Below are positions 29,473 through 61,545 of a DNA stretch of 61,545 nucleotides, piece by piece. The number at the start of each line of letters is the position of its first letter. The stretch's first letter is position 1. The DNA comes from a virus (taxonomy: Duplodnaviria; Caudoviricetes), in IMG/VR virus record IMGVR_UViG_3300009514_000363, positions 1-61,545 of that record, one strand, 5' to 3'. The translations under genes and the position numbers were made by a program. A model generated the notes under the pieces. The model worked only from the letters and a program-made list of their open reading frames with translations. It was not told where the DNA came from and ran no database searches.

Positions 29473-29501
29473 ACTATAACATTAAAATTTTTATTTGTCA
29501 A
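29473..29501 (-). promoter_or_regulatory. sigma70 promoter of the suppressor-tRNA/leader cassette
   Basis: TTGACA-17 nt-TATAGT on the minus strand. Confidence 0.7.
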
Positions 29502-30118
29502 TTTTTCATTTTATTTAATATTTGACACGCACTACAGATTCCACATGGAGATGGTTTTCCATTATACCATATTGGGGTACGACAAGACCATGTTAAATTT
29601 CGTAATTCTGCGGGAAAAATATCACATACTTCCTGTTTTGTCAATTCAATTAACGGCGAGTCCCACACTACTGTAATTTCGTTTGGATAAAGTGCAGCGG
29701 CAAAAATTTTTTGAACTCGTTCTCTGCGGATATGAATATTTTGCCCAAACACCATATCCGTTTTCGTCTGTCCTGATACTATTTTTGTAATAGATGGATC
29801 ACCAATACACATATTCGCAACAAGAACCGCAGCCACATCTAAATCAAACAAAAACCTAGTAAACTTAGGTGGCCGCAAAAATGTTGTTTCTATTACACTT
29901 TCAGTAAATTCAAATTCCCTAAGATTTCTTTCTTCAAAAAAATTAAAGATTTTGTCAATTGCAAGTTTTTCCGCCTGCGCTCTGCGCTCAACATTACGTA
30001 AATGCATATGATGCGCATGAATATTATAATCTGCGTATTTCTCATTCGTAAGCAACATATACAATAGTGCAGTAGAATCTATTCCACCAGAAACCAGACA
30101 AAGAATAGTTTCTTTCAT
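29498..30118 (-). CDS. queC: QueC-like PP-loop ATPase (7-cyano-7-deazaguanine synthase family)
   Basis: LVSGGIDS, PLIELTK, TWSC..P, PCGICSAC Zn motif; divergent, so the substrate is uncertain. Confidence 0.65.
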   Translation of the reverse strand: MKETILCLVSGGIDSTALLYMLLTNEKYADYNIHAHHMHLRNVERRAQAEKLAIDKIFNFFEERNLREFEFTESVIETTFLRPPKFTRFLFDLDVAAVLVANMCIGDPSITKIVSGQTKTDMVFGQNIHIRRERVQKIFAAALYPNEITVVWDSPLIELTKQEVCDIFPAELRNLTWSCRTPIWYNGKPSPCGICSACQILNKMKN

Positions 30119-40847: not shown

Positions 40848-43800
40848 TTATGCTACAGGTAAACCCGTTGTTACGTCAATCCATACTTCTGGACTTCCCG
40901 TGGTACGACCAAAACACATTGAACCAGTAGGTGCTGGTGAACCACTTGCTGTTGCATCAGTAACATAAATCATGCCGCCAGCGACAACTGCTGGTAAAGT
41001 ACCAAGTGTATATGCTGGTAACTGTGGAACACCAGTAAATACAGGACTTGCTTTTGGTGCCTTTTCAGTATCAAGTTCATTGATTGCGGCAGTAACATCA
41101 GTAGCAACAAGACTCGTTGGTGAGCCAGGTGCGAATGATACGTTATCACCATCCAATGTTGCATTTTGCCATTCGGCAGGCGATCCTTGATATACAAGGA
41201 CTTGGCCTGCGGTAGCACCAGCAATAGTAACATCAGTTAAATCATCTGCTGCATGTGTATGACCGGTTGCTGCCTTTTCACTATCAAGTTCAAGAAGTGC
41301 ATCTTGAACGTTGTTTGCTGCAATATTTTGTGGTGAACCGGCTGTAAATGTTATATCGGCAGCATCGTGTACATGACCAACAGCACTAATACCTGCTTCT
41401 GCTAATGTATTATTTTGCCATTCAGCAGGACTTCCTTGATAAACCAATACTTCACCTGAACCAACGGAAGCAATAGTCGTATCACTTAAACTATCAACCG
41501 TGTGTACATGACCAACAGCACTAATGCCTGCTTCTGCTAATGTATTATTTTGCCATTCAGCAGGACTTCCTTGATAAACCAATACTTCGCCTGAACCAAT
41601 AGAAGCAATTGTTGTGTTACTTAAATCATCAACTGCATGTGTATGACCAACAGCACTAATGCCTGCTTCTGCTAATGTTGCATTGACCCAACTAACAGGT
41701 GAGCCTGTAGAAAACATTACTTCGCCAGCATCAAGTGTAGTAATAGTAACATCAGTTAAATCATCTGCTGCATGTGTATGACCGGTTGCTGCCTTTTCAC
41801 TATCAAGTTCAAGAAGTGCATCTTGAACATTATTAGCCGCAATATTTTGTGGTGAACCAGCACTGAATGTTATAATAGCAGCATCATGTACATGACCAAC
41901 AGCACTAATGCCTGCTTCTGCAAGTGTGTTATTCTGCCATTCAGCTGGCGAACCTTGATAAACCAATACTTCACCTGAACCAACAGAAGCAATTGTTGTG
42001 TTACTTAAATCATCAACCGTGTGTACATGGCCAACAGCACTAATGCCTGCTTCTGCTAATGTTGCGTTTATCCATCCAAGTGGTGAACCACTTGACATCA
42101 ATACTTCGCCAACAGCAAGAGAAGTAACAGTAACATCTGTTGAATCGTCAAGAACATGTGTATGTGTTGCCGATGCTTTTTCTGAATCAAGTTCATCAAG
42201 AGCACCCTGTACAGTAACAGCGGAAATCCCTTCAGGACTTCCTGATGGGACATATGTGATTTCAGAAGCAAGATAATCACCAGCAGTAGCAACTACAGCA
42301 CCAGTACGACCTTCAAAAGAATTAACAACTTGCGCATTTGTCCAACCAGCTGGACTGCCTCCATATACTAATACGTCGTCAGCTACCGGCAATGGTGAAC
42401 CATAACTGACATCACTCAATGCAGTGATAACATTATTACCAAGCTCTGATGTTACTTCTGTTGCAAAAGAAGCAGTAACTGCATAGTTTGAAACATTGCC
42501 AATAAAGAAGTTTCCATTATCAAGATTTGGTGTATCGTTAGCACGACCAGCACCAACAACATGGATTACACCAGCGCTTATATTTTGTACTAAGACTTCA
42601 CCAACTTTTTGGATTAAGTTAGTTTCTGCAGCAGGAGCGGGTGTTGCTAAACCGCCACCTGCGGCCACATAAATTTCTATACCAGGTGACCAAGAACTTG
42701 TATCAAATCCTGAAACAATACCAGAAGTGACAACTTCGCCTGCTGTCGTATCTGTAACAGTTGTACCTACAACACCAGCAGCTGGCATATTTGCGGTTAT
42801 AGAAGCATCAGCTTGCTCTACTGTTACATAGGTTCCATCATGACCAACAATATAAACAGGTTCACCTACATTAATGGTACCTGCTGTACTTTTCTTGGCC
42901 ATAAAGAAATTTCTTATCGCACCATTTTGTGGTACCCAACCAGAACCATCATATCCTAATACATCATAGTTATCAAGAAGAGAAGGTGAACCAGGAACAT
43001 CAACATCAAATAAATTGTTTAATGTAGCAGCTCGAAATTCTAACGCTGTTTCCCCTGCATTAACCATTACAAATTGTGAAGCATCAGATGCATATGAAGC
43101 TGGCGCGTCAGTTAAACCAAGGAATGTAGTTACGCCGACAGGGTTAACAGTAGGAACCCAAGCAGAACCATTCCATGCAAGTACATCAGCAACTTGTGGT
43201 GTAGGTGAACCACCCAATGTAGTATCAACATCACTTAATGCATTAATACTATTATTGGCCAGTTCAGATGTTACTTGTGTAGCAAAACCTGTATTTGTCC
43301 AAGCTGTACCATTGAAACGTAAAATATCATCCAATGTTGGCTGCGGTGAACCTGTAAGTGTAACATCATTAATATCGCCAATAGTAAAGCTGTCAGCAAC
43401 GGCGGAAGGATCAATATCAATAGTAACGTTTTTGTTTGAAGCGTCGTTAGCCACAACAATACCACCAGTACCAGCTGGCAAAGCCGCTATACCTTTAAAT
43501 TCTAAATCATTGCCGTTAGTAGCATAAAATACATCAATACCGCCAATACTGACACCACTTCCTGTTAAGATAACAGTTCCTGGAATCCATTTTGAAGTCC
43601 CAGTATCATATGTTAGTGCTTGTCCATCGACAGATTCTGGTGAACCATCTACAACAACGTCCGTTAAATCATCAAGAATATGTGCATGTGTTGTATCAGA
43701 TTTTAATGCCAACTCTGTTAAGATTTTTGTTACTGACCATAAAGAAGTTGCATTATTTGCTGGACTACCGGTACCTGCATTATCATCAATTTGTCTGTGT

Positions 43801-44195
43801 AATGCATTGTTAGCTATGTGCGTATCAATGTCAGCATGTGAATTTGTTCCAATGTTTAGAATCGCTGTATGATCAATGCTTGTTTCGGTAAAGTGAATAT
43901 TTGCATTTCCAATATGTGTGTCTTGATTCGTACCATCCGTGGAAACATCTCGTCCATCTATTAGGCCAACATTGGTTATAGCATTGCCACCCATATTCAA
44001 ATCGGCTAACATACTATTTGTATCTTGAGGACTTCCAGCGCCGCGAAGAAGATAATCACCATCAAGTGTTGCTTTCGCGCCACTGTCTGTCGTGACACCA
44101 TCGGCGATATGACCTATTGCAGTCGCATTGTCCTTGATTTCGTTCGCGACATCTATGATATTAAGCTGTGAACCTAACGGTTTTTTCTGAGCCAT
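40848..44195 (-). CDS. long tail-fibre-like virion protein with GSP-containing repeats
   Basis: 1115 aa; LDDLTDV..GEVLVY..W, HTH/HVH, NVQDALLELDSEKA and VNSFEGRTGAV fibre motifs. Confidence 0.8.
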   Translation of the reverse strand: MAQKKPLGSQLNIIDVANEIKDNATAIGHIADGVTTDSGAKATLDGDYLLRGAGSPQDTNSMLADLNMGGNAITNVGLIDGRDVSTDGTNQDTHIGNANIHFTETSIDHTAILNIGTNSHADIDTHIANNALHRQIDDNAGTGSPANNATSLWSVTKILTELALKSDTTHAHILDDLTDVVVDGSPESVDGQALTYDTGTSKWIPGTVILTGSGVSIGGIDVFYATNGNDLEFKGIAALPAGTGGIVVANDASNKNVTIDIDPSAVADSFTIGDINDVTLTGSPQPTLDDILRFNGTAWTNTGFATQVTSELANNSINALSDVDTTLGGSPTPQVADVLAWNGSAWVPTVNPVGVTTFLGLTDAPASYASDASQFVMVNAGETALEFRAATLNNLFDVDVPGSPSLLDNYDVLGYDGSGWVPQNGAIRNFFMAKKSTAGTINVGEPVYIVGHDGTYVTVEQADASITANMPAAGVVGTTVTDTTAGEVVTSGIVSGFDTSSWSPGIEIYVAAGGGLATPAPAAETNLIQKVGEVLVQNISAGVIHVVGAGRANDTPNLDNGNFFIGNVSNYAVTASFATEVTSELGNNVITALSDVSYGSPLPVADDVLVYGGSPAGWTNAQVVNSFEGRTGAVVATAGDYLASEITYVPSGSPEGISAVTVQGALDELDSEKASATHTHVLDDSTDVTVTSLAVGEVLMSSGSPLGWINATLAEAGISAVGHVHTVDDLSNTTIASVGSGEVLVYQGSPAEWQNNTLAEAGISAVGHVHDAAIITFSAGSPQNIAANNVQDALLELDSEKAATGHTHAADDLTDVTITTLDAGEVMFSTGSPVSWVNATLAEAGISAVGHTHAVDDLSNTTIASIGSGEVLVYQGSPAEWQNNTLAEAGISAVGHVHTVDSLSDTTIASVGSGEVLVYQGSPAEWQNNTLAEAGISAVGHVHDAADITFTAGSPQNIAANNVQDALLELDSEKAATGHTHAADDLTDVTIAGATAGQVLVYQGSPAEWQNATLDGDNVSFAPGSPTSLVATDVTAAINELDTEKAPKASPVFTGVPQLPAYTLGTLPAVVAGGMIYVTDATASGSPAPTGSMCFGRTTGSPEVWIDVTTGLPVA
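41150..42200. repeat. intragenic tandem repeats of the fibre shaft
   Basis: Near-identical DNA blocks encoding GEVLVYQGSPAEWQNNTLAEAGISAVGHVH and AGSPQNIAANNVQDALLELDSEKAATGHTHAADDLTDVTI; boundaries approximate. Confidence 0.8.
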
Positions 44196-44207
44196 GTTTT
44201 AATCCCC

Positions 44208-47200
44208 TTATCCTATATAACCAAAGCCATAAAATTCTACATCGGTGCCTTCGGCAGGTTCACTACCAGCATTGAATGTAATAGTAATAGTACCAGTTCC
44301 ATATCCTGCAACAGTATACGCTTTGCCGGCACCTTCTGTTTGTTTAATACCATTAACAAATATTTGTATTGCTGCATGGTTTGCTGCTGGTGCTGGAATA
44401 TTCCATTCTGAACCAGTAAGCGTATACACAAGATCTGTTGTTGGACTACCGCCTTGGCCTGTTTGAATATCATATGCGGGCTGTGCAGGCGTAAGACCAA
44501 CTCTTGCAAGTTCTGTTTCAGAACCGTCAAGACCAGCCTTGAAGTTTTCAAGCGAATCATCCCAAATAAGGGTTGCGCCAAGCGAACTATCTGGTGAACC
44601 AACCGGCGAACCAGCTTCATCACGTACAACGTAAATACCTGCACCAGTACTACCAGATGTTGGACCATTGTAGCCCTTGTTAACAGTAATTTGTTTGTCT
44701 GTTACTTCTAAGTTAGTACTATCAATAAATGTTGTAGTACCAGCAACAGTCATATCAGCATTAACAATAACATTTGAACTAAATGTTATAATGTCTGTAA
44801 ATGTCTTAGTACCAGTAATAGATTCTGAAACGGAACCAGTTGCATGTACAAATTCATCTATATCTGTAGGTGTTATGTTAACCCAATTGGTACCATTGAA
44901 TTGCATAAAATCATTTGCGGATGCGGTACCACTAGGTGAACCAGTAAATACTACATCACTTAAATCAGAAAGAATTGCTGTACCAGTAAAGTAAGTATCA
45001 AGTGCAGCCGCCCAATCATCAATTGCTGTTGCTGCATTGGCATGTGTATGTCCTGCCGTTGCAAAGTCTGCTGCTTTTGAACCACTATCTGTTAAGTCGC
45101 CGGCGGCATCTAAGCCTGCAAAATTTCCTGCAACTGCAGCGGGACTTCCAACAACTTTGTTTGCTTTAGTAGTATCAACTTTATCAGCAGTCCAGAAGTT
45201 AGATGTTGTATTAGCAGTATCATCAACATAGTAAGTAGAATCTTGAATATCACCATTTATTGCAACGCTAACAAAAGTTTCAACATATGGGCTGCCTACT
45301 GGGCTACCTACATGATTTATAAAGTTAGCTTTAAGATCTAATTGATCTTGAACATTTGATGTTACATTACTAAGGAAATTAACATGGGCAGCCGTTAATG
45401 TTTCTGGACTACCCGTAATATTCAATCCATCCAAGAATGCATTTTGTTCTGGTGTCATATGATGTACAACTGGACTTCCAGTTTCATCAATGTGTGCCGT
45501 CAAAGCAACAGTTTGTGCAGTATCTAATGTATCAACATATTCTTTAGATGCTGCGCCAGTCGCTGATGGAGATGCTGGTAAACCAAGAACTTCGCCGCCG
45601 CCAGAGAATGTTAAACTAATGCCAGAATCCATGACAGATGTATCAAGTGGTGAACCAGTTTCACCAGCACGGTCAATCTTGCGTGCAACTTGTGTATCAA
45701 CATATTCTTTAGATGCTGCTGCTGTTGCAGAAGGCGATGCAGGCATACCGAGTACCTCGCCACCGCCAGAGAATTGTAAGCTAATACCCGCGTCCATAAC
45801 AGATCTGGCAAGCGGTGAATCAACTTCTCCGCTTCTACTAATCTTATCATCAAGTTGTGCTTGAACTGTTGTACTAGTATCAATACCAGATAAAGTATTA
45901 ACTTCACCACCCGCTAAGGTAGGGCTTCCTGTCATTACAGTATCCAAGAAAGCATTTTGATCTGCTGTCATATGCCATACAGTTGGGCTTCCCGTGTCTA
46001 TAGCATGTGCATGTAATGCAGCTTGTACAGCCGCAGCTTCAGTATCAACATAAAGTTTTGAAGCTGCCGCATCATCAACAGATGGAGTTGCAGGCAAACC
46101 AAGAACTTCACCATTGTTAAATGTTAAATCTGCGCCAAGATCCATAGTATCACCAGCAGAAAGAACTCTTTCGTCAAGGTGAGTTTGCATTGATTTGCTA
46201 GTATCAATACCGTCTAAAGTATTAATTTCATCTGCATCAGCAGAAATATCTGTTAAATCATCAATCGTGTGTTGGTGATTAGTATAACTAAATGGAGTTA
46301 TTATTAACGTTGGAGTTAACGGTGAACCCAAAAGTGCTGAACGGGAACCTTCCCATACGCCACTTGATTCATTCCATTGTATGAATGCGTCTTGTGGAAG
46401 TGAACCACGATCAACTGCAAAACCTGCCGTGCCTGATCCAAGATCAAGATTAACATGGTCACCATAGTTTATGGTTGTTACGTTGTCTTTAATTCTAACA
46501 TCAACAGAATTAAGAATTGTGGTTGTTTCTACTTGTGGTGAACCTGAAGTATTTTGACCAACAGTGAAGTCACCATTGATAATTAAGTTACCATTCTTAG
46601 TTTCGTTACCAGTTACATGAATGTAATCAGATTCACTAAAATCACTAATAATTGATTTAGTCGCATTGTGGTTAGACCAACCATCTACGGCTTCGTATAT
46701 TAACACTTGTCCTTCTGCTAAAGCAGGCGAACCATGATATTCAACGTCTGCCATTGTATTAAGATTGTTGGTAGTCAACTCATTAGTAACACTAGTAGCA
46801 AAATCTTTATTTTCCCAATAATTTTGTGTTCCATTATAAAGTAAATGTTGTTTATTACCTAAAGGTGGTGAACCATCATGATAAAAAACATCAGCCATTT
46901 TGTCTAACGTATTAAGACTTTCACCTAATTCTGCGGTAAACCAAGCAGAAAGGCCATTGATATCACCAGGGACATGGTTATGGTTCGCAGTAAGAACAGG
47001 TGCTGCTGAACCAACTACACCAAATTCCCATTGTCCTGCATTTTCATCCCATTGGAGAATAGCATCTGGAAGATCTGGACTACCAATACCACGATCAATG
47101 CGAATACCTGCGGTACCTGCACCGCCGCCAACGCCAGCTCCAGTTTCACCATAATTTAAAATTACATGATCATCTTTTACGTACAATTCTGTGGTTTCGA

Positions 47201-48509
47201 TGCTTGTATCATCACCAGTCACTGTTAAAGATTGTTCAACGACTATGCCTTCTTTAAAGGTTTTAACACCCCAAATATTTTGATCAGTACCTGATGGTGG
47301 CGAACCCATGTCACCGGCAACGTTAGTAACAAGAACAAATTCTGCGCCAGTAAAATCAGAAATGTCTAATTTAACAAGTGGACGCGACACAAAGCTGATA
47401 CCATTGTGCATTAAAGCGTCACCACTTGTTGGTACCTCTGATGTTGTATCAACATCAGAAAGATCGTCAGTAGTAAGGAATCTGTTTACGTAAATTGTTC
47501 CATTGTGAACTAATACATGTTTATTGCCAGCACCTGCACTAGTAACATCGAGTAAACTATTAGCATATAAATTAATATTGCCAGCAGTTGGTGGTAATGA
47601 GTTAATCGTTTGTACTTGTGGCGTAAAATCGGTAATATCTGCGATTTCGTGCGTATGTGAAAGCGGCGCAAAGTTAGCATCTGCTTCAGTTTCGGTGTAA
47701 TAACGACTATCTAATACACCTACGCCCACTGCGCCGCCAAATTCTGTTTGTGTGTAATATCTTGCGTCAAGTGCACCGCCATCAAGATTGGCTTTTGTAT
47801 AATAGTTACCACTTGATTCATCGAAACCAATTGGATTCCATGTTACACCATCGTTAGTGAATTCCCAACGAGCGGCTGGTTGCGTTGCTGGACTTCCTGT
47901 TGGGCTTCCTGTGCCAGGTATTTCATTAAAACGAATACCAACATCTGGACCCGAAAATCTATCAAACCAAAGTGCGCCAGTATTTGTAGAACCACCACCA
48001 ACATTAAGAGTAAAATCTGCACTATTAGTACCATCAGTATCGGCTTTAGTAGCAACACTGTTATCAACGTATGTGGTTGTAGCATAATCTGACAATTGGG
48101 ACTGACTTACACTATCTGGTTGAATTTGCCACATAGGACGAAGGTCATAAATCATGTCATTCGTAATAGCAGTTGTAGTATCACCAACGAAAATAGCAGC
48201 CAACGGAAGCTTGTCCGCATATAAGCTTGCGGCTGGCAAATCAGGGTTAGCACCTGCAGTACCATTAATAAGGCTAACTTGTCCATTTGCAGTTACTGTA
48301 ACTAAAACCCATTTCGCGTTTGAGCTAGGTGCACTAATAGTTGGAGAAGTTCCACCAACATATTCTTTAAATTCTGTGTCAGCAGTCCAGAACGCGCCTT
48401 CGGCGATCTTAACTGTCATATTAGGCGTTGACTGAGCTTCAACTTTTAATGGCGTAAAATATGCGCCTAATTTTTTTGCTGTATCGCCTTTCGGTGGTAA
48501 GGATATCAC
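44208..48509 (-). CDS. large tail-fibre/virion structural protein
   Basis: 1433 aa, GTG start with GGAG RBS; AASKEYVD repeats, V.D..I.LN...GIRIDRG modules, C-terminal IQIFVNGIKQ domain. Confidence 0.8.
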   Translation of the reverse strand: MISLPPKGDTAKKLGAYFTPLKVEAQSTPNMTVKIAEGAFWTADTEFKEYVGGTSPTISAPSSNAKWVLVTVTANGQVSLINGTAGANPDLPAASLYADKLPLAAIFVGDTTTAITNDMIYDLRPMWQIQPDSVSQSQLSDYATTTYVDNSVATKADTDGTNSADFTLNVGGGSTNTGALWFDRFSGPDVGIRFNEIPGTGSPTGSPATQPAARWEFTNDGVTWNPIGFDESSGNYYTKANLDGGALDARYYTQTEFGGAVGVGVLDSRYYTETEADANFAPLSHTHEIADITDFTPQVQTINSLPPTAGNINLYANSLLDVTSAGAGNKHVLVHNGTIYVNRFLTTDDLSDVDTTSEVPTSGDALMHNGISFVSRPLVKLDISDFTGAEFVLVTNVAGDMGSPPSGTDQNIWGVKTFKEGIVVEQSLTVTGDDTSIETTELYVKDDHVILNYGETGAGVGGGAGTAGIRIDRGIGSPDLPDAILQWDENAGQWEFGVVGSAAPVLTANHNHVPGDINGLSAWFTAELGESLNTLDKMADVFYHDGSPPLGNKQHLLYNGTQNYWENKDFATSVTNELTTNNLNTMADVEYHGSPALAEGQVLIYEAVDGWSNHNATKSIISDFSESDYIHVTGNETKNGNLIINGDFTVGQNTSGSPQVETTTILNSVDVRIKDNVTTINYGDHVNLDLGSGTAGFAVDRGSLPQDAFIQWNESSGVWEGSRSALLGSPLTPTLIITPFSYTNHQHTIDDLTDISADADEINTLDGIDTSKSMQTHLDERVLSAGDTMDLGADLTFNNGEVLGLPATPSVDDAAASKLYVDTEAAAVQAALHAHAIDTGSPTVWHMTADQNAFLDTVMTGSPTLAGGEVNTLSGIDTSTTVQAQLDDKISRSGEVDSPLARSVMDAGISLQFSGGGEVLGMPASPSATAAASKEYVDTQVARKIDRAGETGSPLDTSVMDSGISLTFSGGGEVLGLPASPSATGAASKEYVDTLDTAQTVALTAHIDETGSPVVHHMTPEQNAFLDGLNITGSPETLTAAHVNFLSNVTSNVQDQLDLKANFINHVGSPVGSPYVETFVSVAINGDIQDSTYYVDDTANTTSNFWTADKVDTTKANKVVGSPAAVAGNFAGLDAAGDLTDSGSKAADFATAGHTHANAATAIDDWAAALDTYFTGTAILSDLSDVVFTGSPSGTASANDFMQFNGTNWVNITPTDIDEFVHATGSVSESITGTKTFTDIITFSSNVIVNADMTVAGTTTFIDSTNLEVTDKQITVNKGYNGPTSGSTGAGIYVVRDEAGSPVGSPDSSLGATLIWDDSLENFKAGLDGSETELARVGLTPAQPAYDIQTGQGGSPTTDLVYTLTGSEWNIPAPAANHAAIQIFVNGIKQTEGAGKAYTVAGYGTGTITITFNAGSEPAEGTDVEFYGFGYIG

Positions 48510-48554
48510 GGCTCTGCTCCCTTGATAAATACGTTTTTAATGAGGTAAAAATTT

Positions 48555-49484
48555 ATGTCTACTGATATTTATCAAAGGGGTAAAAAATTTATACGTAATT
48601 CAAAGAAGATACACAAGGACAAGTACGATTACAGCAAAGTTGATTACATAAATGCAAGAACCCCCGTCACAATTGTTTGTCCGATACATGGTGATTTTCA
48701 TCAATGGCCAGACAAACATCTTAATAGAAAGCACGGATGTCCAAGTTGTGGTGGAACTGAAAAATCAAATACGCCCAAGTTTATAGAAAAGGCAAAAAAA
48801 GTTCATGGTAATATTTATGAATATATGCTAGTCAACTACAAAGGCAATCGTGAACCAGTTCAAATTGTTTGTCATGAACATGGTGTTTTCAAACAAACAC
48901 CAAAAGATCATTTAGATGGATGTGGATGCCCAAAATGTGGCGGATTTGCCCGTTTGACGCAAAAAGACTTTGTAATGAGATCTATGAAAAAGCACAATAA
49001 CAAATATGATTATTCTTTAGCCAAATTTACTACAGATAGGAAAAAGATTACAATTATTTGCCCTGAACATGGTAAATTTACACAAACACCAAATGCACAT
49101 ATGAGAGGGCAAGGTTGCCCAAACTGTAAGTCAACCAAAGGATATTCAATAGGTGTGTTTGAAAACAATGAAAGTTTAAAATACGAACATGGAAGATTAT
49201 ATCTTTTACAATTTACTAATATTGACGATGGAACAGAATTCCTAAAAGTTGGAATTACAAAACGTACCATTAAATCAAGGTTCAGTTCTGGATATGGTGG
49301 TTACGATTATACCGTTTTGTTGGACAGAGAAATGAAATTATATGATGCTTTTGTTCTGGAACAGCACATATTGCGTACATTTGAAAATATTAAATTTGTA
49401 CCAGATTCACCATTTGGTGGACGCAATGAATGTTTCACCACAGATTATACGCACCAAATAATCAAAACCATATTAACGTCTTGA
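48555..49484 (+). mobile_element. free-standing homing-endonuclease-like gene
   Basis: Three repeats of H..KYDYS...I.CP.HG.F.Q.P..H..GCP.C followed by a GIY-YIG-like LYLL...LKVGIT..R..E domain; lies between a fibre gene and the DNA polymerase. Confidence 0.7.
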
Positions 49485-49509
49485 CAGGCAAATCCACCTG
49501 TCGTATAAT
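49481..49509 (+). promoter_or_regulatory. consensus sigma70 promoter of the DNA polymerase gene
   Basis: TTGACA-17-TATAAT. Confidence 0.8.
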
Positions 49510-49536
49510 AGCAAAAAATAATAATGAGGAAAATTA

Positions 49537-52176
49537 ATGGGATATATCAACGCCATAAAAAGAAATAACGATATTCTCGTATGGGAAAGAAATGATGGCA
49601 AGCGCGAAATAGCGAATTACAGAGCACCTTATTACTTTTACACAAAATCCAAAAATGGCACATATATTAGCATGTATGGCGATAAATTAGAACGCCATGA
49701 TTTTGCAACAGGTAAAGAATTTAATGAAGCGAGAGCTGGATATGCCGGAATGGGTGTCAAGATGTTTGAATCTGACATTCCACCAGAATTGAAGTTACTA
49801 TCCGAAAAATACTACAATAAACCAGCGCCTGCTCTTCACGTAACCTTTTTCGATATTGAAGTTGACTACGATAAAGAACGGGGATTCTCATCCATCGAAG
49901 ATCCCTATGCACCGATAAATTCTATCGCACTGTATAATAATTGGCAGAATAGGATGTTGGTAATTGCTGTTCCACCCGAAGATTATGACGGACCATTAGA
50001 CGAAGAAACCATCTTAAAGGAAATGCACGATATCGCTGCGTTGCCTGATGATTGTCGGATTGAAGTAAAATTATTTGAAAATGAACACGATATGCTGGAA
50101 TATTTTTTAGAAGAAATCCAAGACAGTGATGTTCTTTCTGGTTGGAACAGCGACTATTTTGACATTCCATATTTAGGTAAACGATTGAAATTAATGGGGA
50201 AACGATATCTTGGCCAATTATCATTTCCAGAAGGGAACCCACCCAAATTTCGCGAAGAAGAAACACAATACAGATTACAATGGGTATTAGATCTGTCAGG
50301 CAGAATTAGTGCTGATTACTTGCTTATTTTCAAAAAATATGAGGTGGTTGAAAGACCAAGTTACCGATTAGAATCAATTGCGGATGAAATCCTTATAAAC
50401 CCAAAAACTAAAGAACCCATTTTGCCAAAATTAGAATATGAAGGTTCGTTAGCCAGCCTATACAGAAATAACTTTATTTGGTTCATTCGATACAATCTCC
50501 GTGATACCGAAGTCTTGAAAGGATTCGAAGACCGTTTAGGATATGTGGAACTTGCGAATCAAATGTACCATCTATCCACTGGACTATTTAAACATGTTAC
50601 AGGAACTCTAAAACTGTCTGAACTTGCCACAATCAACTACTGTCACTATGAACTGGATGGTATGATTGTTAATGATGTCCATGTTCCAGATTCTGCTGAA
50701 AAGGCCAAAGGCGCTTTTGTGTTACTTCCACAAGTGGGGGAACATGACTGGATTGGGGCAATTGATATCAATTCGCTGTACCCGTCAGCCATCCGTTCAA
50801 ATAATATTAGCCCAGAGACCATTGTTGGTCAATTTGTTGAAAATGAACGAGCATTTGAAGAAATCAAAAATCGTTCCTTTAGACAATTAACCCTTGAAAT
50901 GGACAGTGGGGAAAGGTTGACTGCTGGAGCAGACGAGTGGCGTGAAGCACTATTGAATAAGAACTGGTCAATTTCTGGTTATGGAACGGTATTTTCCCAA
51001 GAAAAAGAAGGGATTATGCCATCTATCCTCAAATATTGGTATTCGACCAGAAAGAAATATCAAAAGTTAATGATAGAAGCAAAGGAAAGCGGAGATCAAA
51101 CAAAGGCAACATATTATGATAAATTACAGTATGTTTACAAGATTAAACTGAATAGTTATTATGGTTCATTGTTGAATGCCTATTTCAGGTTCTACGATAA
51201 ACGTCTTGGTGAAAGCACTACGGCCACAAGCCGTGCGATTCTTCTACACCAATGTGCAAAAGTGGCTGAACTTCTTGACGGTAAATATGCACCTACTGAT
51301 AGATTAGAACATGATAAACAAGGTAAGCCACATATTGGATATTCTGATAAATGGTCAGTGATATATGGTGATACCGATTCAACGTATTTTAAAACTCATG
51401 CTTCAAGCGAAGAAGATGCTGTTGCAATTGCTGATGCTGTTGGTGAACAAACCAGTGCATCCTTCCCTGAGTTCATGCGCGAAACATTCTTGTGTGGTGA
51501 AGGCTTCGATGATATCATTAAGACAGGTCGTGAAATCGTTTCTGACAAAGGTATCTTTGTTGATAAGAAACGTTACTTCTTACACATTGTCGATAATGAA
51601 GGATTCAAATGTGACAAGATTAAAGTCATGGGATTGGATACTAAAAAGACCACACTACCAAAAGAAGTATCAAAAGAACTGAATAGTTTCGTTGAACGAT
51701 ACCTGAAAGGTGAAGATTGGGATACTATTGCAACTGAAATTGTTGATTATAAAGATACGCTTTATAACACAAAAAATGTTATGTTTATTGGGTTACCAAA
51801 AGGTGTACAAAATGTAGAATCCTATACCCGCGAATATAAAAATGACAATAAGACACGTCTTCCAGGTCATGTGGCTGCCAGCATTTTTTATAATATGTGT
51901 CGTAAAGAATATGATGATAAAGAAAGCTTGGAAATCAAATCAGGAATGAAAATAAAGGTATTCTATCTGAATAAAACATATGGAAGATTTAAAAGTATCG
52001 CTATACCCGTTGATATTGAAAGGGTTCCTGAATGGTTTTTACAAGACTTTATTATTAACAGAGATATGCATATTGAGCGGCTTATAGACAATCCTATGAA
52101 TAATATCATCAAAGCAATTGGTAAAGAAACACCATCAAAACAAAGCTTATTAACGGATTCGTTGTTGGACTTTTAA
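49537..52176 (+). CDS. gp43: family B DNA polymerase (T4 gp43-like)
   Basis: Exo FFDIEV, GWNS..FDIPY, YN.RD; pol DINSLYPS, KIKLNSYYG, YGDTDS, KKRY. Confidence 0.97.
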   Translation: MGYINAIKRNNDILVWERNDGKREIANYRAPYYFYTKSKNGTYISMYGDKLERHDFATGKEFNEARAGYAGMGVKMFESDIPPELKLLSEKYYNKPAPALHVTFFDIEVDYDKERGFSSIEDPYAPINSIALYNNWQNRMLVIAVPPEDYDGPLDEETILKEMHDIAALPDDCRIEVKLFENEHDMLEYFLEEIQDSDVLSGWNSDYFDIPYLGKRLKLMGKRYLGQLSFPEGNPPKFREEETQYRLQWVLDLSGRISADYLLIFKKYEVVERPSYRLESIADEILINPKTKEPILPKLEYEGSLASLYRNNFIWFIRYNLRDTEVLKGFEDRLGYVELANQMYHLSTGLFKHVTGTLKLSELATINYCHYELDGMIVNDVHVPDSAEKAKGAFVLLPQVGEHDWIGAIDINSLYPSAIRSNNISPETIVGQFVENERAFEEIKNRSFRQLTLEMDSGERLTAGADEWREALLNKNWSISGYGTVFSQEKEGIMPSILKYWYSTRKKYQKLMIEAKESGDQTKATYYDKLQYVYKIKLNSYYGSLLNAYFRFYDKRLGESTTATSRAILLHQCAKVAELLDGKYAPTDRLEHDKQGKPHIGYSDKWSVIYGDTDSTYFKTHASSEEDAVAIADAVGEQTSASFPEFMRETFLCGEGFDDIIKTGREIVSDKGIFVDKKRYFLHIVDNEGFKCDKIKVMGLDTKKTTLPKEVSKELNSFVERYLKGEDWDTIATEIVDYKDTLYNTKNVMFIGLPKGVQNVESYTREYKNDNKTRLPGHVAASIFYNMCRKEYDDKESLEIKSGMKIKVFYLNKTYGRFKSIAIPVDIERVPEWFLQDFIINRDMHIERLIDNPMNNIIKAIGKETPSKQSLLTDSLLDF

Positions 52177-52177
52177 T

Positions 52178-52594
52178 ATGAAAAAACTTTTTACATCGAA
52201 TTATGCAAGACATGGTAATAATCCAAATGCTATTGCCATAAGCTTAATTGTTCCAGAATGGTATGAAGGCAAACGTCTTGAATATCTAGCACCAAGAAGC
52301 GACATGGTTGGGAAGATAAAAAAAGGTTCAGAAAATTATAATCAGCGGAAATATACAAGGGAATACATTGATTTACTTAAAGCGCGGAACGTGCAGCCAC
52401 AGAAACTGGTAGATTCTTTACCAGATGGTGCGATACTTTTATGTTACGAATCGCCAGGTGATTTTTGTCACAGAAGACTTCTTGCAGATTGGATTGAATG
52501 TCGTACAGGTGTCATGATTCCTGAATGGAAGAATGAAAAAGAAACTGAAGTGGAAAACCAGAACAAAGTTGTTGACAGCATACTTGACTTTTAG
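52178..52594 (+). CDS. DUF488-like protein with C-terminal clamp-binding-like peptide
   Basis: LAP, LLCYE...CHRRLLADW; ends VDSILDF with a TAG stop. Confidence 0.7.
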   Translation: MKKLFTSNYARHGNNPNAIAISLIVPEWYEGKRLEYLAPRSDMVGKIKKGSENYNQRKYTREYIDLLKARNVQPQKLVDSLPDGAILLCYESPGDFCHRRLLADWIECRTGVMIPEWKNEKETEVENQNKVVDSILDF

Positions 52595-52640
52595 TATACT
52601 GCGGAATGCAATATAAAATAACAATAATAGGATAATAAAA

Positions 52641-53342
52641 ATGAAACTTACACAAGATCTCATTGATTTCATAGAAACCGTAGTAAAAACGGGACAAAGC
52701 GTTAACATTGATAATGTTATCATTGAACCAGACATGGTTAGAGCTATTGACGATGCACGTACTGTAGTTCTGTATCAAGATTCAGATGTACCCGAAATGC
52801 CATTTGGTTCTATTGGGTTAAATCGTATCAGCGTATTCTTATCGCGCCTTGAAATTGCAAAAACACAAGACAACTTCACACTTGATGTAGTCGTTAATGA
52901 TGGTGAAGAATATGCGCGTTCTATCGCAATGAAAGGCACCGGATTAAAGGTCGATTATCGTTGCGCAAATCCTACAACTATTCAAGCTCCACGTCAGATC
53001 AATGATAATCTAGTATATCGCATTCAGTTAAATGCAGAAGCTGTTAGCTTACTTCAAAAAGGCCAAGTTGCTATGGGTTCAGAAACGGTAACTATTGTGA
53101 ACGACGACGGCGTTTCTTTCGAATTAACTGACGTAAATAGTGATGCATTCAAACATACATTTGCGCCAGATGTTGAATTATTAGACGAAGATGCGCCGGC
53201 CAGCTTCACACATCGTTACCCTGCCAAAACTTTACTTGCATTATTCAAACAGAATCCAGATGGTCATTTCGATATTGGTGAAAAGGGCATTCTTAATATT
53301 ACTGTTAACGGACTTGACATTTACGTATTACCACAGGTATAA
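52641..53342 (+). CDS. gp45: sliding clamp (T4 gp45-like)
   Basis: 233 aa acidic protein near the polymerase; GSIGLNRI..F and C-terminal GILNITVNGLDIYVLP pattern. Confidence 0.65.
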   Translation: MKLTQDLIDFIETVVKTGQSVNIDNVIIEPDMVRAIDDARTVVLYQDSDVPEMPFGSIGLNRISVFLSRLEIAKTQDNFTLDVVVNDGEEYARSIAMKGTGLKVDYRCANPTTIQAPRQINDNLVYRIQLNAEAVSLLQKGQVAMGSETVTIVNDDGVSFELTDVNSDAFKHTFAPDVELLDEDAPASFTHRYPAKTLLALFKQNPDGHFDIGEKGILNITVNGLDIYVLPQV

Positions 53343-53346
53343 GTAC

Positions 53347-53565
53347 GTGTCTGCTGTAATGCGAACCGTTGAGCGCCTTATGGGTAAGGATTGGCACGTT
53401 TGCCAAATGTCAGAGTTAAATAAAGGTGATATTTTTAGGTTACGTGAACCGACTGGGGAACTAGTAGGTGAACAAAACTGGATCGCAGCCAGCGAACCAC
53501 AAATAACAGTTGAAAATGACAAACCTATATGGGGCATTGTAGCTAAAGGAGAAGACGATGACTGA
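53347..53565 (+). CDS. small hypothetical protein
   Basis: About 72 aa (GTG 53347 or ATG 53359); MSELNKGDIFRL. Confidence 0.5.
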   Translation: MSAVMRTVERLMGKDWHVCQMSELNKGDIFRLREPTGELVGEQNWIAASEPQITVENDKPIWGIVAKGEDDD

Positions 53566-54016
53566 TGGCGATAAACCAATAATTGATATTGAAGAACCTA
53601 CACAACAGGAAGTTGTAGAACAACCAAAGAGTTCAATACTTTCTGGTGAAGAACTTGCTGCTATTAAAGAACAATTAAAAGCACAAGTCATAGATGAATT
53701 GAAAGATGAAAGAACTCGTAAGATGGAAGAAGCAAAATTCCGCCGTGAAGAAGAAGATGCTGAACAGCAGCGCTACATCACAAAGATGAAACAATCGCCC
53801 GATCCATGGGTTGATATCATTGGTTGGGTTCGTACTGATGAAGGCGTAAAGATTGAATTAGAATGGAATGATGCATTTGTTGATTTCCTTCGCGTAGAAG
53901 GTATCAAAGGTGCAGACGATGAACAAGTTGTTCAGAAGTGGGTGACATTGCTTTTGCGTGATATGGCTGACGAAATGGAAGAACGCTATCAGAGTGATAG
54001 TGATTACGCAGGGTAA
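53558..54016 (+). CDS. hypothetical protein
   Basis: 152 aa; PWV, ELEWNDAFV..L...G..G..DE.VV.KW; AGGAG RBS. Confidence 0.7.
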   Translation: MTDGDKPIIDIEEPTQQEVVEQPKSSILSGEELAAIKEQLKAQVIDELKDERTRKMEEAKFRREEEDAEQQRYITKMKQSPDPWVDIIGWVRTDEGVKIELEWNDAFVDFLRVEGIKGADDEQVVQKWVTLLLRDMADEMEERYQSDSDYAG

Positions 54017-54029
54017 AAAGAATAATAAT

Positions 54030-54941
54030 ATGAAATACTTAGTCTTAGATATAAGCAACCTTTTATATCGTTCCTTTTATGCGAATAAAAGCGAAGATGA
54101 TATAACAATAGCGGGTTTGGCACATCATCAAGCTCTTCTTACCTTAAACAAATATTATAGGGCACATAAACCAGATAAAGTTATAATGTGTTTTGATCGT
54201 TATACATGGCGAAAAGAATACACGAAATCTGATGAATGTGTTTCTGGCAAGTTATACAAGGGCAATCGTCGCCAAGATATGACAGCAAAAGAACGCGAAA
54301 AATATGAATTATTCTTGAGTCATTTGAAAGAATTTGAAGAATTGATGAAAGTACATACGAGCGTTGTATGTCTTGCTGCGGATGGTTTAGAAGCAGATGA
54401 TTTGGCAGCAGGATTTGTTCAAATGCATTCAGGTAAAGGTAATGAAATCGTTGTTATTAGCACCGATAAAGACTACATCCAACTTCTCGGCTTTCCGAAC
54501 ACCCAACTTATCAACCCGGCGGATGACAAACCGCGCTCTCTTAATGAGTGGAACGGTGATGTGGAATTATTCATGTTTGAAAAATGTATTCGTGGTGATG
54601 CAGGAGATAATGTTCAATCTGCTTATCCGCGCGTCAGAAAAACAAGAATTTTAAAAGCTTGGAAAGATCCACTAGAACGTGTCAATATGATGCACGAAAC
54701 ATGGACTAATCACGAAGGCAAAGAAATGATGGTTAAGAGTGTTTTCAAAGAAAATGAAATGTTAATGGATCTCAGAAAACAACCAGAAAAATGGCGCAAT
54801 ATAATGGAAAAAACCATTTCCGAAGAAATGGAAAACCCAGGTCAGTATTCATATTTTCATTTTATGAGATTCTTAGGAAAATACAAAATGGAGAAATTGG
54901 CAGCTCAAGCCGAACAATTTGCCCATATGTTAAGCAGGTAA
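54030..54941 (+). CDS. rnh: T4 RNase H-like 5'-3' exonuclease / flap nuclease
   Basis: LVLDISN, YKGNR, LEADDL, ISTDKDYIQL, IRGDAGDNV; start MKYLVL at 54030. Confidence 0.9.
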   Translation: MKYLVLDISNLLYRSFYANKSEDDITIAGLAHHQALLTLNKYYRAHKPDKVIMCFDRYTWRKEYTKSDECVSGKLYKGNRRQDMTAKEREKYELFLSHLKEFEELMKVHTSVVCLAADGLEADDLAAGFVQMHSGKGNEIVVISTDKDYIQLLGFPNTQLINPADDKPRSLNEWNGDVELFMFEKCIRGDAGDNVQSAYPRVRKTRILKAWKDPLERVNMMHETWTNHEGKEMMVKSVFKENEMLMDLRKQPEKWRNIMEKTISEEMENPGQYSYFHFMRFLGKYKMEKLAAQAEQFAHMLSR

Positions 54942-55292
54942 TTATTCTCCTGTTTCGCCATCCTTTGATTTTTCTTCGGGTTTCTTCTTCCAAAAAGTAA
55001 AGCCATTCCACTTCTTACCAGTAGAAGTATATAGTCCAAATACTGCAGCTGAAATACCCACAACTGCCGTAACTAATGCGGCATGTTGGGTTGTTGGAGC
55101 CTGGGCGATGCAGTCTAATGCGTTTGATGAAACACATTTTTCAATGACATATGGCGCTAAATCCATATACCAGTTAACAATCTTATATAACATATAACAA
55201 TATAGTGCCACCAAAGCACGGGGAACGACACGCCATGCATCCAATCCTTCCGCCATTGACAGGTGAATTTGTCTAAATTTATCAATATCCAT
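54942..55292 (-). CDS. two-TM membrane protein (holin candidate)
   Basis: 116 aa; LDAWRVVPR, WYM.L, PTTQHAALV, FGLY; late promoter upstream. Confidence 0.55.
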   Translation of the reverse strand: MDIDKFRQIHLSMAEGLDAWRVVPRALVALYCYMLYKIVNWYMDLAPYVIEKCVSSNALDCIAQAPTTQHAALVTAVVGISAAVFGLYTSTGKKWNGFTFWKKKPEEKSKDGETGE

Positions 55293-55313
55293 AGCTACGC
55301 TCCTTGTAATCTA

Positions 55314-55327
55314 TATAAATATTTATA
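55314..55327. promoter_or_regulatory. back-to-back T4-type late promoters
   Basis: The palindrome TATAAATATTTATA gives TATAAATA on both strands, between divergent genes. Confidence 0.7.
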
Positions 55328-55352
55328 CAGATTAGGTTAAAAATAGGAAAAT

Positions 55353-55646
55353 ATGATGGGTGACGTAGCAGCAAGAATTGGAGATCCAATTGATTGTGGG
55401 GATGTTATAGCACAAGGAAGTGGTAATGTATTCGTCAACAATATACCCGTATCTCGTTTGGGAGATAATACAGCTGGTCATTGTTTTCCTGCTGTTCCTC
55501 TTATACCCCCGGTTGCAACAACAGTAATGGCAAATGGTATTCCTATTGCACATATTGGTACTGGAATACCTACCCATTGTTGTGGTATTCCTTGCCATGC
55601 GGGTTCTGTTGCTGCAGGATCACCAGATGTTTTTGTTGAAGCTTAA
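55353..55646 (+). CDS. PAAR spike-tip protein (T4 gp5.4-like)
   Basis: VAARIGD..CG, GSGNVFVNNIPVSRLGD, GSPDVF. Confidence 0.9.
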   Translation: MMGDVAARIGDPIDCGDVIAQGSGNVFVNNIPVSRLGDNTAGHCFPAVPLIPPVATTVMANGIPIAHIGTGIPTHCCGIPCHAGSVAAGSPDVFVEA

Positions 55647-55657
55647 AGGTTAGTGTT

Positions 55658-56455
55658 ATGGCTAGTTGTCTACCAAAATTTCACAAAGCAATCTGCGATG
55701 AATTTACACCAGATTTCATCCCAAGCGGTACAGATTGTATAATGCCAGGTTATGATATTTTTCGTGCATACACATTTGCAGGTGGCACATTTTTTAGGGC
55801 TATTGAGCTTGGTGCATCTGGTGAAACTATACAAGTTAAATGTGAATGGCTTACAAGCACGGGTGTAGTAACTACAAATGAACTTTCATGCAAGTCAGTT
55901 AGACTTACAGTTAGTAAAGTTGGTTATCCTACCGAAGTATATAATACTCCACAAGAAATTGACAATGCTGCTTCGCCGACAACATGGTTACCATTATCGG
56001 ATGGTGGAATAAGTGATTTGCGCAATCAAATAAATATTAATAGTAATTTAATCACTATGCCACCTCAACATTTTCGGGCGAATTGGGGAACTGGATCGGG
56101 TTCGCCGCCTTTATTTGACGATAACCATATAGGGTATTTTACATCATCATTAAGTGATGCGGGTGATGATGCACCATCTGGGCCAGCAGGAATTCGTACA
56201 GGCCCAACGTATAGTTTATTTCTCAAAAGAATTTCTGAAACTAAAGATGATCCAAGTCTTCAACCAGACAGCAGAGGTGAAGAACCCATAGTAGGAACAA
56301 AAGCAGCAGATGGTATAGATGCAGGTTATGAATCAGAAGTCATGATAGTTTCCGCATGGGATGGAACACGATGGATTGGCTTTGACCAACATGGAAGTCC
56401 TATTCAGCCGTCTTGTTACGATCCAAACGACATACCACATGGATTATGTACTTGA
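55658..56455 (+). CDS. hypothetical protein, probably virion-associated
   Basis: 265 aa downstream of PAAR; contains two GSP motifs. Confidence 0.6.
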   Translation: MASCLPKFHKAICDEFTPDFIPSGTDCIMPGYDIFRAYTFAGGTFFRAIELGASGETIQVKCEWLTSTGVVTTNELSCKSVRLTVSKVGYPTEVYNTPQEIDNAASPTTWLPLSDGGISDLRNQININSNLITMPPQHFRANWGTGSGSPPLFDDNHIGYFTSSLSDAGDDAPSGPAGIRTGPTYSLFLKRISETKDDPSLQPDSRGEEPIVGTKAADGIDAGYESEVMIVSAWDGTRWIGFDQHGSPIQPSCYDPNDIPHGLCT

Positions 56456-56529
56456 TTGGTAACTCTCCAAATTTTAATGGTAAATAATAGTAGAATTTTT
56501 GTTTACACATGGATTAAGGAGATTATATA

Positions 56530-57009
56530 ATGGCTATAACAAAAAGAAAAGGTAACTTTCCACACGTATCGTGGATTGATTTAAAAGGAAATGGTGTATT
56601 AACTGAATGTGCCATTTTAAAGGAAGATGGATTTGGGAATACCTATTATATCGAAATTCCAAAACTTGATGCAATTGATAAGAATCGCTTAGCACGAATC
56701 GTAAAAAATCGTAATGCACCCAATTTTGAATTGTGGGATTTAATGAGTCAGGTAACACTTAATAATGGTATTAATGCTCTTGAGTATTTTCATCAATTAG
56801 TTAAAATCATTACCACTGATGGTGTAATCATGAATCCACGACAAGGTACTGTTGGTACTGGTGTAGTTAATACTGGTAGTGCTGCTGAAATGGCTTCTAT
56901 GAATATGAATGCACCGGTTGAAAGTGTTAAAGAAAGTGCGGAACTTACACCTGCAGAAAAACGTGCAGCTACTCTCGCAGCTAAGAAAACTGCTGCTGAA
57001 CAATCTTAG
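56530..57009 (+). CDS. hypothetical protein
   Basis: 159 aa; HVSWIDL..NG...ECAI, LDAIDKNRL, ELWDLMS..TL.NG.NALEYFHQLVK; AAGGAG RBS; TAG-TAA double stop. Confidence 0.7.
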   Translation: MAITKRKGNFPHVSWIDLKGNGVLTECAILKEDGFGNTYYIEIPKLDAIDKNRLARIVKNRNAPNFELWDLMSQVTLNNGINALEYFHQLVKIITTDGVIMNPRQGTVGTGVVNTGSAAEMASMNMNAPVESVKESAELTPAEKRAATLAAKKTAAEQS

Positions 57010-57034
57010 TAATAAGGTACTTTGTGTAAGCAAT

Positions 57035-57061
57035 AAAAAACCCGCCGCTGGCGGGTTTTTT
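57035..57061. terminator. bidirectional intrinsic terminator
   Basis: AAAAAACCCGCC-GCT-GGCGGGTTTTTT. Confidence 0.85.
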
Positions 57062-57079
57062 ATTTGTTATTGTTTAATC

Positions 57080-61545: not shown

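Follow-up and report, generated by a model that had tools for sequence, protein, structure and literature searches.

A strict Gly-Ser-Pro tripeptide recurs in the tail proteins of a clade of giant T4-like phages and is a candidate sequon for serine modification

In the 61,545-nucleotide virus record IMGVR_UViG_3300009514_000363, the tripeptide Gly-Ser-Pro (GSP) recurs in tail fiber and baseplate proteins far more often than composition predicts. The window discussed here (G000 in our record set) is the whole of that IMG/VR-type record (61.5 kb; estimated completeness, 18%), and it is a fragment of an uncultured giant T4-like phage. Based on its distribution and conservation, we conclude that GSP behaves like a short linear motif under selection, placed on loops exposed at the surface of the adsorption apparatus; the observation itself is real and robust. 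GSP is read as a selected, serine-centered tag because its enrichment is strict and clade specific, its sites lie in loops, it has been gained recurrently, and selection on it centers on the serine. At a probability of roughly 0.4, we propose that this tag is a sequon for modification of the serine, most likely by glycosylation; the modification is something that we infer.

Across the 70 non-overlapping open reading frames (ORFs) of the window, GSP occurs 55 times against an expectation of 3.2 (z = 29), and it is the most over-represented tripeptide both of the whole window and of each large protein. An earlier reading of this DNA, made from the letters alone and referred to here as the original prediction, had called for such a proteome-wide enrichment check. 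That reading had also reported about 20, about 20, about 11, 1 to 2, and 1 to 2 GSP in five ORFs and none in the replication enzymes. A recount over the 61 ORFs of at least 100 amino acids (aa; 18,027 aa in all), with the expectation taken from each protein's own composition, gives exactly 20, 20, 11, 1, and 2 for the proteins here called A, B, C, D, and E (expected 0.41, 0.54, 0.36, 0.21, and 0.20) and 0 in the other 56, all replication enzymes included. The expectation of roughly one per protein stated at that time was slightly high, the actual values being 0.2 to 0.5, and the enrichment stands; the list of five carriers was sound as far as it went and overlooked one GSP in a 97-aa PAAR protein. 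In 2000 shuffles per protein, the maximum number of GSP reached in the three large proteins was 5, 4, and 4. The carriers in the window are the following.

40848-44195, minus strand: fiber-like protein A, 1115 aa, 20 GSP, with probable PTR-type tail-fiber repeats holding HxH motifs
44208-48509, minus strand: fiber-like protein B, 1433 aa, 20 GSP, with three GSPxGSP doublets
58592-61543, minus strand: baseplate-module protein C, 983 aa in the window, 11 GSP, its N terminus cut by the window end
69-1712, minus strand: tail-fiber-like protein D, 547 aa, 1 GSP, matching PHROG tail-fiber families 11338, 2710, and 11355
55658-56455, plus strand: protein E, 265 aa, 2 GSP, next to the PAAR spike tip
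55353-55646, plus strand: PAAR-motif spike-tip protein, 97 aa, 1 GSP (PF05488, 43 bits)

The motif is strict. In the three large proteins, GSP accounts for 51 of the 58 G-x-P and 51 of the 60 x-S-P tripeptides, and GTP, GAP, TSP, ASP, and SSP stand at expectation, with no enrichment in any GSP-rich genome. Context is weak (Thr, Ser, or Gly ahead of the motif and Leu or Ala behind it), and neighboring sites can be close together, with 7 of 280 pairs at a spacing of 4; the doublets described in the original prediction are indeed present, GSPTGSP once and GSPVGSP twice, all in 44208-48509. A collagen-like Gly-X-Y tract was considered and rejected, given that only 1 of the 280 neighboring pairs lies at a spacing of 3 and the flanks are unrelated. 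Gly-Cys-Pro (GCP) was likewise rejected as a cysteine twin of GSP: all 14 GCP of the complete, uncultured relative G002 (IMGVR_UViG_3300021514_000002; 363,531 bp; completeness, 100%; syntenic with the window) belong to the GCPxC of homing-endonuclease zinc fingers.

Could these counts be an artifact of repeated DNA? A BLAST self-comparison listed no internal repeats, and an anchored comparison of flanks was used instead. It sorts 54 sites into 41 flank-similarity clusters (99.9% null threshold), and with 41 clusters remaining we reject a repeat artifact: the flanks are mostly unrelated, as had been claimed, and the enrichment survives the collapse of repeats. Likewise, 24 distinct 9-mers encode 51 sites and both serine codon boxes occur, which bears out the claim of varied codons; the commonest 9-mer, GGTTCACCA, is found at 12 of the 51. 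The 24 9-mers and the unrelated flanks also uphold the view that this is not only DNA duplication and that the motif acts at the protein level. Serine codon use at GSP sites departs from that of the remaining serines in the proteins concerned: TCT is underused, and TCA and TCG are overused (p about 0.0004-0.008 in the window and in the related records G001, G002, and G004). Gly and Pro codons at the sites mostly match background use (across four genomes, 6 of 8 tests show no significant difference). As a separate observation, the window phage carries a tRNA-Ser reading TCG, one of the codons enriched at the sites.

What kinds of proteins carry the motif, and where within them does it lie? Protein A matches annotated tail-fiber proteins by tblastn, scores 25.5 bits against PF12789 (PTR; cut-off 27), and is listed with PF12789 in the collection's precomputed annotation. 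The PTR family consensus, L-S-D-V-T-I-T ... G-E-x-L-x-W-N-G-x-x-W-x-N ... G-H-T-H, is visible in its alignment with A, and at the turn of the fiber repeat the consensus W-N-G-x-x-W becomes Y-Q-G-S-P-A-E-W; that is, the Asn-Gly turn of the PTR repeat is replaced in A by a longer, GSP-holding loop. Proteins A and B are distantly similar (24% over about 900 aa). The right end of the window is a baseplate module made up of the PAAR protein, protein E, a conserved 395-aa protein (57080-58267), and protein C. For C, no PDB-library match was found at E <= 0.001; in G002, its 67% orthologue has as neighbors the baseplate wedge and a virion structural protein of 3702 aa, and the G002 orthologue of E (259 aa) holds 7 GSP. 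Carriers of the motif in G002 include fiber-like proteins, virion structural proteins, and the baseplate wedge, along with the tail sheath, which has 4 sites, and the head-tail adaptor, which has 2; its Gp23-like capsid protein has one GSP at most, and its non-virion genes stand at about expectation. The counts in the window ORFs and in G002 thus bear out a restriction to virion proteins of the tail, fibers, and baseplate. In the AlphaFold2 model of C, built with 17 sequences (mean predicted local distance difference test [pLDDT] score, 68.9), 8 of 11 sites are all coil versus 37% expected (p = 0.017), and 10 of 11 are at least partly coil. In the model of A, which is too poor for more than a hint (pLDDT 49.3), coil is assigned to 19 of 20 sites, and 7 sites fall in hairpin turns, where one strand gives way to the next. 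Where models exist, then, they lend support to the predicted location in loops and turns.

Comparison with orthologues indicates how the sites arose. Six GSP sites of protein A are insertions of 2-5 aa, and its C-terminal GSPEVWIDV is invariant in all 5 orthologues. The 14 orthologues of C yield 36 site groups; roughly ten of these persist in 10 or more of the 14, and many are private, often in the shape of a seven-residue insertion with the pattern x-x-G-S-P-x-x. When a GSP of one orthologue has no counterpart in another, the second most often shows a gap there. The sites in the sheath, wedge, giant protein, and adaptor of G002 are mostly insertions missing from GSP-poor orthologues (46-65% identity), and in these four proteins the positions at which sites were gained differ between GSP-rich lineages. 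The alignment to homologues that had been suggested as a check for loop insertions therefore finds GSP to be, often, a small insertion (A, C, sheath, wedge, giant protein, and adaptor).

The sites of C are also kept to an unusual degree. They are exactly conserved in 77% of orthologue cells versus 24% for all tripeptides (permutation p < 5e-5), with a per-residue identity of 0.83 for G, 0.87 for S, and 0.90 for P, compared with 0.26-0.36 for their neighbors and 0.59 overall. The serine of GSP, at 0.87, differs strongly from other serines, at 0.52 (p = 5e-5); other prolines reach 0.67 (p = 0.006), and other glycines reach 0.71, a difference that is not significant. With other glycines nearly as conserved as that of the motif, other prolines less so, and other serines far less so, the serine is, by this measure, the residue under special constraint, and neither Thr, Ala, Asp, nor Asn substitutes for it at the motif. 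In these alignments, we have shown recurrent independent gains together with purifying selection that centers on the serine.

The trait can be placed among relatives of the window phage. Its closest cultured relative is Xanthomonas phage XacN1, whose family-B DNA polymerase is 45% identical to the one in the window; for Stenotrophomonas phages, the figure is ~44%. In G002, 62 of 90 window ORFs find a match, mostly at 60-88% identity, and T4-type capsid, portal, sheath, terminase, and baseplate genes are present on related fragments; G001 and the window have only fibers and one endonuclease in common. Our GSP-rich set comprises 8 records, and the GSP-poor contrast comprises 4 genomes, namely, XacN1, RsoM2USA, CM1, and G005 (uncultured, 90% complete). 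In G002, 86 GSP are observed versus 14.5 expected (z = 18.8; the next tripeptide has z = 6.5), and the excess recurs in G001 (51 observed versus 3.9 expected), G004 (75 versus 6.3), G007 (46 versus 9.9), G008 (23 versus 6.6), G003 (19 versus 3.3), and G013 (16 versus 2.7). There is no excess in XacN1 (19 versus 22.4), RsoM2USA (16 versus 16.4), CM1 (15 versus 16.6), or G005 (14 versus 14.5). Over ten conserved proteins, G005 is as distant from G002 as are the GSP-rich G007 and G008, and the trait has thus been gained or lost independently of overall distance.

Beyond these records, GSP enrichment was seen at each of 7 additional metagenome loci in which the C-like gene reaches 44% identity or more (for one of them, 23 kb of a 178-kb contig was examined), and each of 13 full-length C orthologues holds 8-20 GSP; a scan for the C family in species genomes found nothing. 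All 23 homologues of B at 44% identity or more carry 2-20 GSP, and 9 of 12 more distant ones carry none. The 79 proteins retrieved with A (A included) divide into 7 with at least 4 GSP, up to 29 in a 1946-aa fiber, and 72 with 0-2, many of which have the same PTR repeat. The original prediction had named GSP as a plain turn common to homologous fibers as a point against its own reading; most homologous fibers outside the clade do not show this. Judged by these counts, the GSP trait is tied to the clade and not to the fiber fold. A contrast of gene content between the 8 GSP-rich records and the 4 GSP-poor genomes returned only a DUF488 protein, a peptide deformylase, and a few small unknowns, and we rejected these as tag-linked genes, the contrast being confounded by phylogeny and fragment coverage. 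The DUF488 protein (138 aa; window 52178-52594, close behind the polymerase gene), which occurs in 7 of the 8 GSP-rich records and in 0 of the 4 GSP-poor genomes, is probably a clade marker without a link to the motif.

The fiber genes themselves may be mobile. The following gene lies beside those of A and B.

48555-49484, plus strand: HNH/T5orf172 homing-type endonuclease (Pfam and PHROG families)

Together, A, B, and this endonuclease (40848-49484) occupy 8.7 kb on the upstream side of the DNA polymerase gene. This stretch is absent from G002, where the genes that flank it are only 112 bp apart, and a B-like fiber gene occupies the same place in G003; for these reasons, tagged fiber cassettes appear to move among phages of the clade.

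In total, the observations outlined above are compatible with a model in which one clade of T4-like giant phages places GSP, mostly via small in-frame insertions, on the exposed loops and hairpin turns of fibers, baseplate proteins, the PAAR tip, the sheath, and the adaptor. In this model, an enzyme acting in the infected cell would recognize the serine hydroxyl prior to assembly, and the chemistry would most likely be O-glycosylation. A candidate route in G002 would start from CMP-Kdo (cytidine monophosphate-3-deoxy-D-manno-octulosonate), made by the phage's KdsA and KdsB, and would end in transfer by a Maf/MptE-like or GT8-like enzyme. The resulting covering of the tail would change adsorption, stability, or recognition. 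A fuller version, which we put forward tentatively and with the odds against it, holds that GSP may be the acceptor tag of a phage-run, sequon-directed system of tail modification: a serine-specific enzyme, possibly Maf-like or GT8-like and supplied with phage CMP-Kdo, would read the tripeptide on any loop, sites would be added or removed by insertions or deletions of a few codons, and tagged cassettes would be exchanged between phages that share the writer. If true, no earlier case would exist of a sequon defined for the modification of phage virions.

Which gene products might act as the writer? The original prediction had proposed a virion surface-modification system and a search for glycosyltransferases co-occurring with GSP-rich fibers. 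The idea of a motif acting at the protein level stands; no modifying enzyme was found in the window, where neither Pfam scans, which covered 48 ORFs, nor six-frame searches returned a glycosyltransferase (PF00535, PF00534, PF01973, and PF13844 are absent). G002 offers more. At 44-51 kb, it has a cluster of a GT8-like protein (29.3 bits versus a cut-off of 24.3), two MptE/Maf-like proteins (PF01973; one at 37.4 bits versus a cut-off of 34.6, one a weak match), and a radical-SAM/SPASM protein; some 150 kb separate the GT8-like gene from the closest fiber genes that are rich in GSP (208-213 kb). G002 also encodes KdsA (437 bits) and KdsB (221 bits) equivalogs, that is, CMP-Kdo synthesis. Both are absent from XacN1, RsoM2USA, CM1, G001, and 18 other records (two of them near complete), G005 and G014 being among the records that lack them, and a search for further phages with the G002 KdsB returned only G002. 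The window does not cover the genome part that holds these two genes in G002. The G002 MptE-like proteins match no solved structure, and structure and Atlas look-ups of the MptE-like, GT8-like, and 237-aa proteins returned no function. The glycosylation route is plausible only via the complete relative G002 and the glycoproteins of XacN1.

Several points weigh against reading GSP as a modification sequon. The chemistry at GSP is, for all these phages, a candidate deduced from sequence. Loops in general conserve Gly and Pro, the difference for Gly is not significant, and confidence is moderate for one structure model (68.9) and poor for the other (49.3). Of 48 window ORFs run against Pfam, none matched a glycosyltransferase, hydroxylase, or Hanks kinase; GT2, GT4 (PF00534), and GT41 are absent from G002. 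No glycosyltransferase is found among the 25 most recurrent of 48 families (127 ORFs from three GSP-rich fragments), and since the bulk family scans covered the 25 most recurrent of 78 families and of these 48, single-copy transferases may be hidden. The MptE-like proteins of G002 are short (214 and 257 aa) and have no assigned activity, and they and the GT8-like protein have homologues in XacN1 and CM1, both without the tag. KdsA and KdsB occur in the 1 complete GSP-rich genome (1 of 1) and in 0 of 6 GSP-rich fragments, which center on the baseplate and may not reach the genes. Finally, the known Maf enzymes, in the part of PMC11339370 that bears on them, have no sequon and accept Thr.

Could GSP instead be an unmodified structural device for a tight loop or hairpin turn, in which Gly gives backbone freedom, Ser caps, and Pro stiffens, and which has spread as new loops tend to be copies of existing ones? 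The sites in coil and hairpin turns, the replacement by GSP of the Asn-Gly turn of the family's consensus repeat in fiber A, and the invariance of GSPEVWIDV in 5 of 5 orthologues, like that of a structural element, would all fit, as would the good conservation of Gly and Pro elsewhere and the fact that no writer gene was found (48 window ORFs and the recurrent families of three fragments). Such a turn, however, should tolerate Thr, Asp, Asn, and Ala, yet GSP makes up 51 of 58 G-x-P, with GTP and GAP at expectation, and it is the conservation of Ser that stands out most (0.87 versus 0.52). Moreover, orthologues at 46-65% identity fold without these loops, the motif is found in mutually dissimilar proteins (C, E, the sheath, the adaptor, and the fibers), and the enrichment is confined to virion proteins. 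On balance, we consider a purely structural role rather unlikely. A further rival account holds that the peptide is unselected, a by-product of repeated insertion or conversion of one short cassette at the DNA level. The commonest 9-mer at 12 of 51 sites, the skewed serine codons (TCT down, TCA and TCG up; p about 0.001, four genomes), and the origin of some sites by tandem duplication, e.g., the sheath insert, point that way; against them stand 24 different 9-mers in both serine codon boxes, Gly and Pro codons that mostly follow the background (6 of 8 tests non-significant), unrelated flanks, conservation of G, S, and P alike as neighbors drift, and the lack of an excess in non-virion genes. 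We give this account almost no credence.

Is it possible that GSP is bound rather than modified? Repeated weak sites could serve to dock a decoration or assembly protein, a prolyl isomerase, a chaperone, or a host or environmental surface, and the sites are exposed, numerous, clustered (7 of 280 neighbor pairs at a spacing of 4), and limited to the outer parts of the tail; a few small proteins of unassigned function occur only in GSP-rich records. Three residues with variable flanks would nevertheless give little binding energy, no informative family is assigned to the clade-specific small proteins, whose distribution is confounded by phylogeny, and no decoration protein was identified, which makes docking decidedly unlikely in our estimate. 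The remaining candidates are sequons for other chemistry: phosphorylation of the serine (e.g., by a PrkA-type kinase), hydroxylation of the proline, or a radical-SAM reaction on the serine. A specificity for serine alone suits some enzymes of these kinds. The window encodes PrkA, DUF444, and SpoVR proteins, and of the five radical-SAM proteins of G002, one has a SPASM domain and sits beside the GT8/MptE cluster. The trio in the window is laid out as follows.

21278-26101: PrkA-DUF444-SpoVR trio (yeaG-yeaH-ycgB type), with the PrkA-type kinase at 24149-26101, the only kinase-named gene of the window

This trio is common to the window, G002, and the tag-free Ralstonia phage RsoM2USA; XacN1 and CM1 do not have it. 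The Pkinase domain (PF00069) is absent from G000, G002, G004, G007, and G008, and GTP and TSP are not enriched; proline-directed phosphorylation, one of the chemistries originally suggested, is thus unsupported. So is Pro hydroxylation, with no 2-oxoglutarate-Fe(II) prolyl hydroxylase (2OG-Fe(II); PF13640) in G000 to G003. The radical-SAM/SPASM protein of G002 lies above the cut-off of no curated family, and the motif of sulfatase maturases is S-x-P rather than S-P. We regard these other chemistries as very unlikely.

How, then, does a serine-directed modification of GSP compare with known systems? Virion O-glycosylation in mycobacteriophages, with glycans at the C termini of capsid and tail-tube subunits, is described in the pertinent section of PMC12619734, which cites Freeman et al. 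2023. The likeness lies, as far as that section goes, in covalent modification of phage structural proteins inside the host cell with a proposed benefit at the surface. GSP differs in being a strict tripeptide scattered over loops of fibers, baseplate, sheath, and adaptor, no glycosyltransferase turned up in the window, and the modification in our case is a candidate read from sequence. In flagella, Maf enzymes (PF01973) are described, in the sections relevant here, as flagellin O-glycosyltransferases that use CMP-activated ulosonic acids, Kdo included, and that O-link Kdo from CMP-Kdo to exposed Ser/Thr of flagellin (PMC11339370; bioRxiv 10.1101/2020.06.03.131540). The common features would be cytoplasmic O-glycosylation of a surface-exposed Ser on a filament protein before assembly, and G002 has candidate counterparts in its PF01973, KdsA, and KdsB proteins. 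In contrast to Maf, for which those sections give no known sequon, Ser within G-S-P is strict here and has no Thr equivalent; the phage Maf-like proteins are short, have homologues in tag-free relatives, and none of the genes is in the window.

Within the same giant-phage group, the XacN1 virion contains at least two glycoproteins, according to the portion of PMC5852040 that concerns them. XacN1, whose DNA polymerase is the one 45% identical to that of the window, has glycosyltransferase genes (GT9, ORF328; ORF334) inside its baseplate gene module, and the window has no transferase at the syntenic place. XacN1 also has no GSP excess and carries Thr-Pro repeats instead in its fiber-like proteins. 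Virion glycosylation in this phage group is credible; a link to GSP would be our inference. The Thr-Pro repeats are an observation in their own right: TPT is hugely enriched in XacN1 (324 versus 25.3) and CM1 (178 versus 18.9), in large fiber-like proteins that include homologues of the window's C and D.

Two further comparisons concern evolution and fold. Animal-virus envelope proteins gain and lose N-glycosylation sequons. As with GSP, a very short motif forms a conserved island, is gained and lost fast on exposed loops, and is selected for number and place; the motif, residue, enzyme system, and kind of virus are different, and the likeness is in evolutionary behavior only. With PTR (PF12789) fibers, protein A has in common a probable build of PTR repeats with HxH motifs, and it differs in that its turn is a longer GSP loop and that 72 of the 79 proteins retrieved with it hold 0-2 GSP. 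A paper on moraphages was set aside as a parallel, moraphages being another phage lineage. No published description of a GSP tag was found by full-text searches of a collection with few subscription journals.

Most of the window's length is given to replication and nucleotide-metabolism genes (Pfam and PHROG scans), and several of its other features deserve mention. Two tRNA genes have the anticodon CTA (amber-suppressor type; Pyl according to ARAGORN), at 29358-29435 and 30711-30785; a tRNA-Arg(CCT) and the tRNA-Ser(CGA) are also present, with further tRNA positions at 26843-26916 and 27236-27326. No sign of recoding was seen in the window: 3 of 63 ORFs stop at TAG, each with the next stop 0-15 codons downstream. 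The gene at 32838-34247 codes for a domain of the curli secretion channel CsgG, matches SPOR weakly, and has no homologue in G002 or the cultured relatives. Other genes encode an Acb1 anti-CBASS phosphodiesterase (13306-13836), a Thg1-like tRNA-His guanylyltransferase (17421-18131), and a QueC-like PP-loop protein (29498-30118). Matches at several places in G002 include Cas5fv and Csy4 (type I-F-variant CRISPR [clustered regularly interspaced short palindromic repeats]), a Cpn60 chaperonin, RCC1 repeats, NadA, phosphoribosyl pyrophosphate synthetase, five DNA methylases, and the five radical-SAM proteins.

If the tag marks a modification, large aquatic phages would have a simple and evolvable code for editing the exterior of the machinery with which they adsorb. 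Such editing would bear on host range, on particle stability, and on the escape of the tail from recognition, and it would provide a three-residue handle with which to engineer modified phage particles or other proteins. Even if GSP is unmodified, the repeated insertion of one strict tripeptide into tail proteins that are unrelated is sequence convergence of an unusual kind and calls for a structural explanation.

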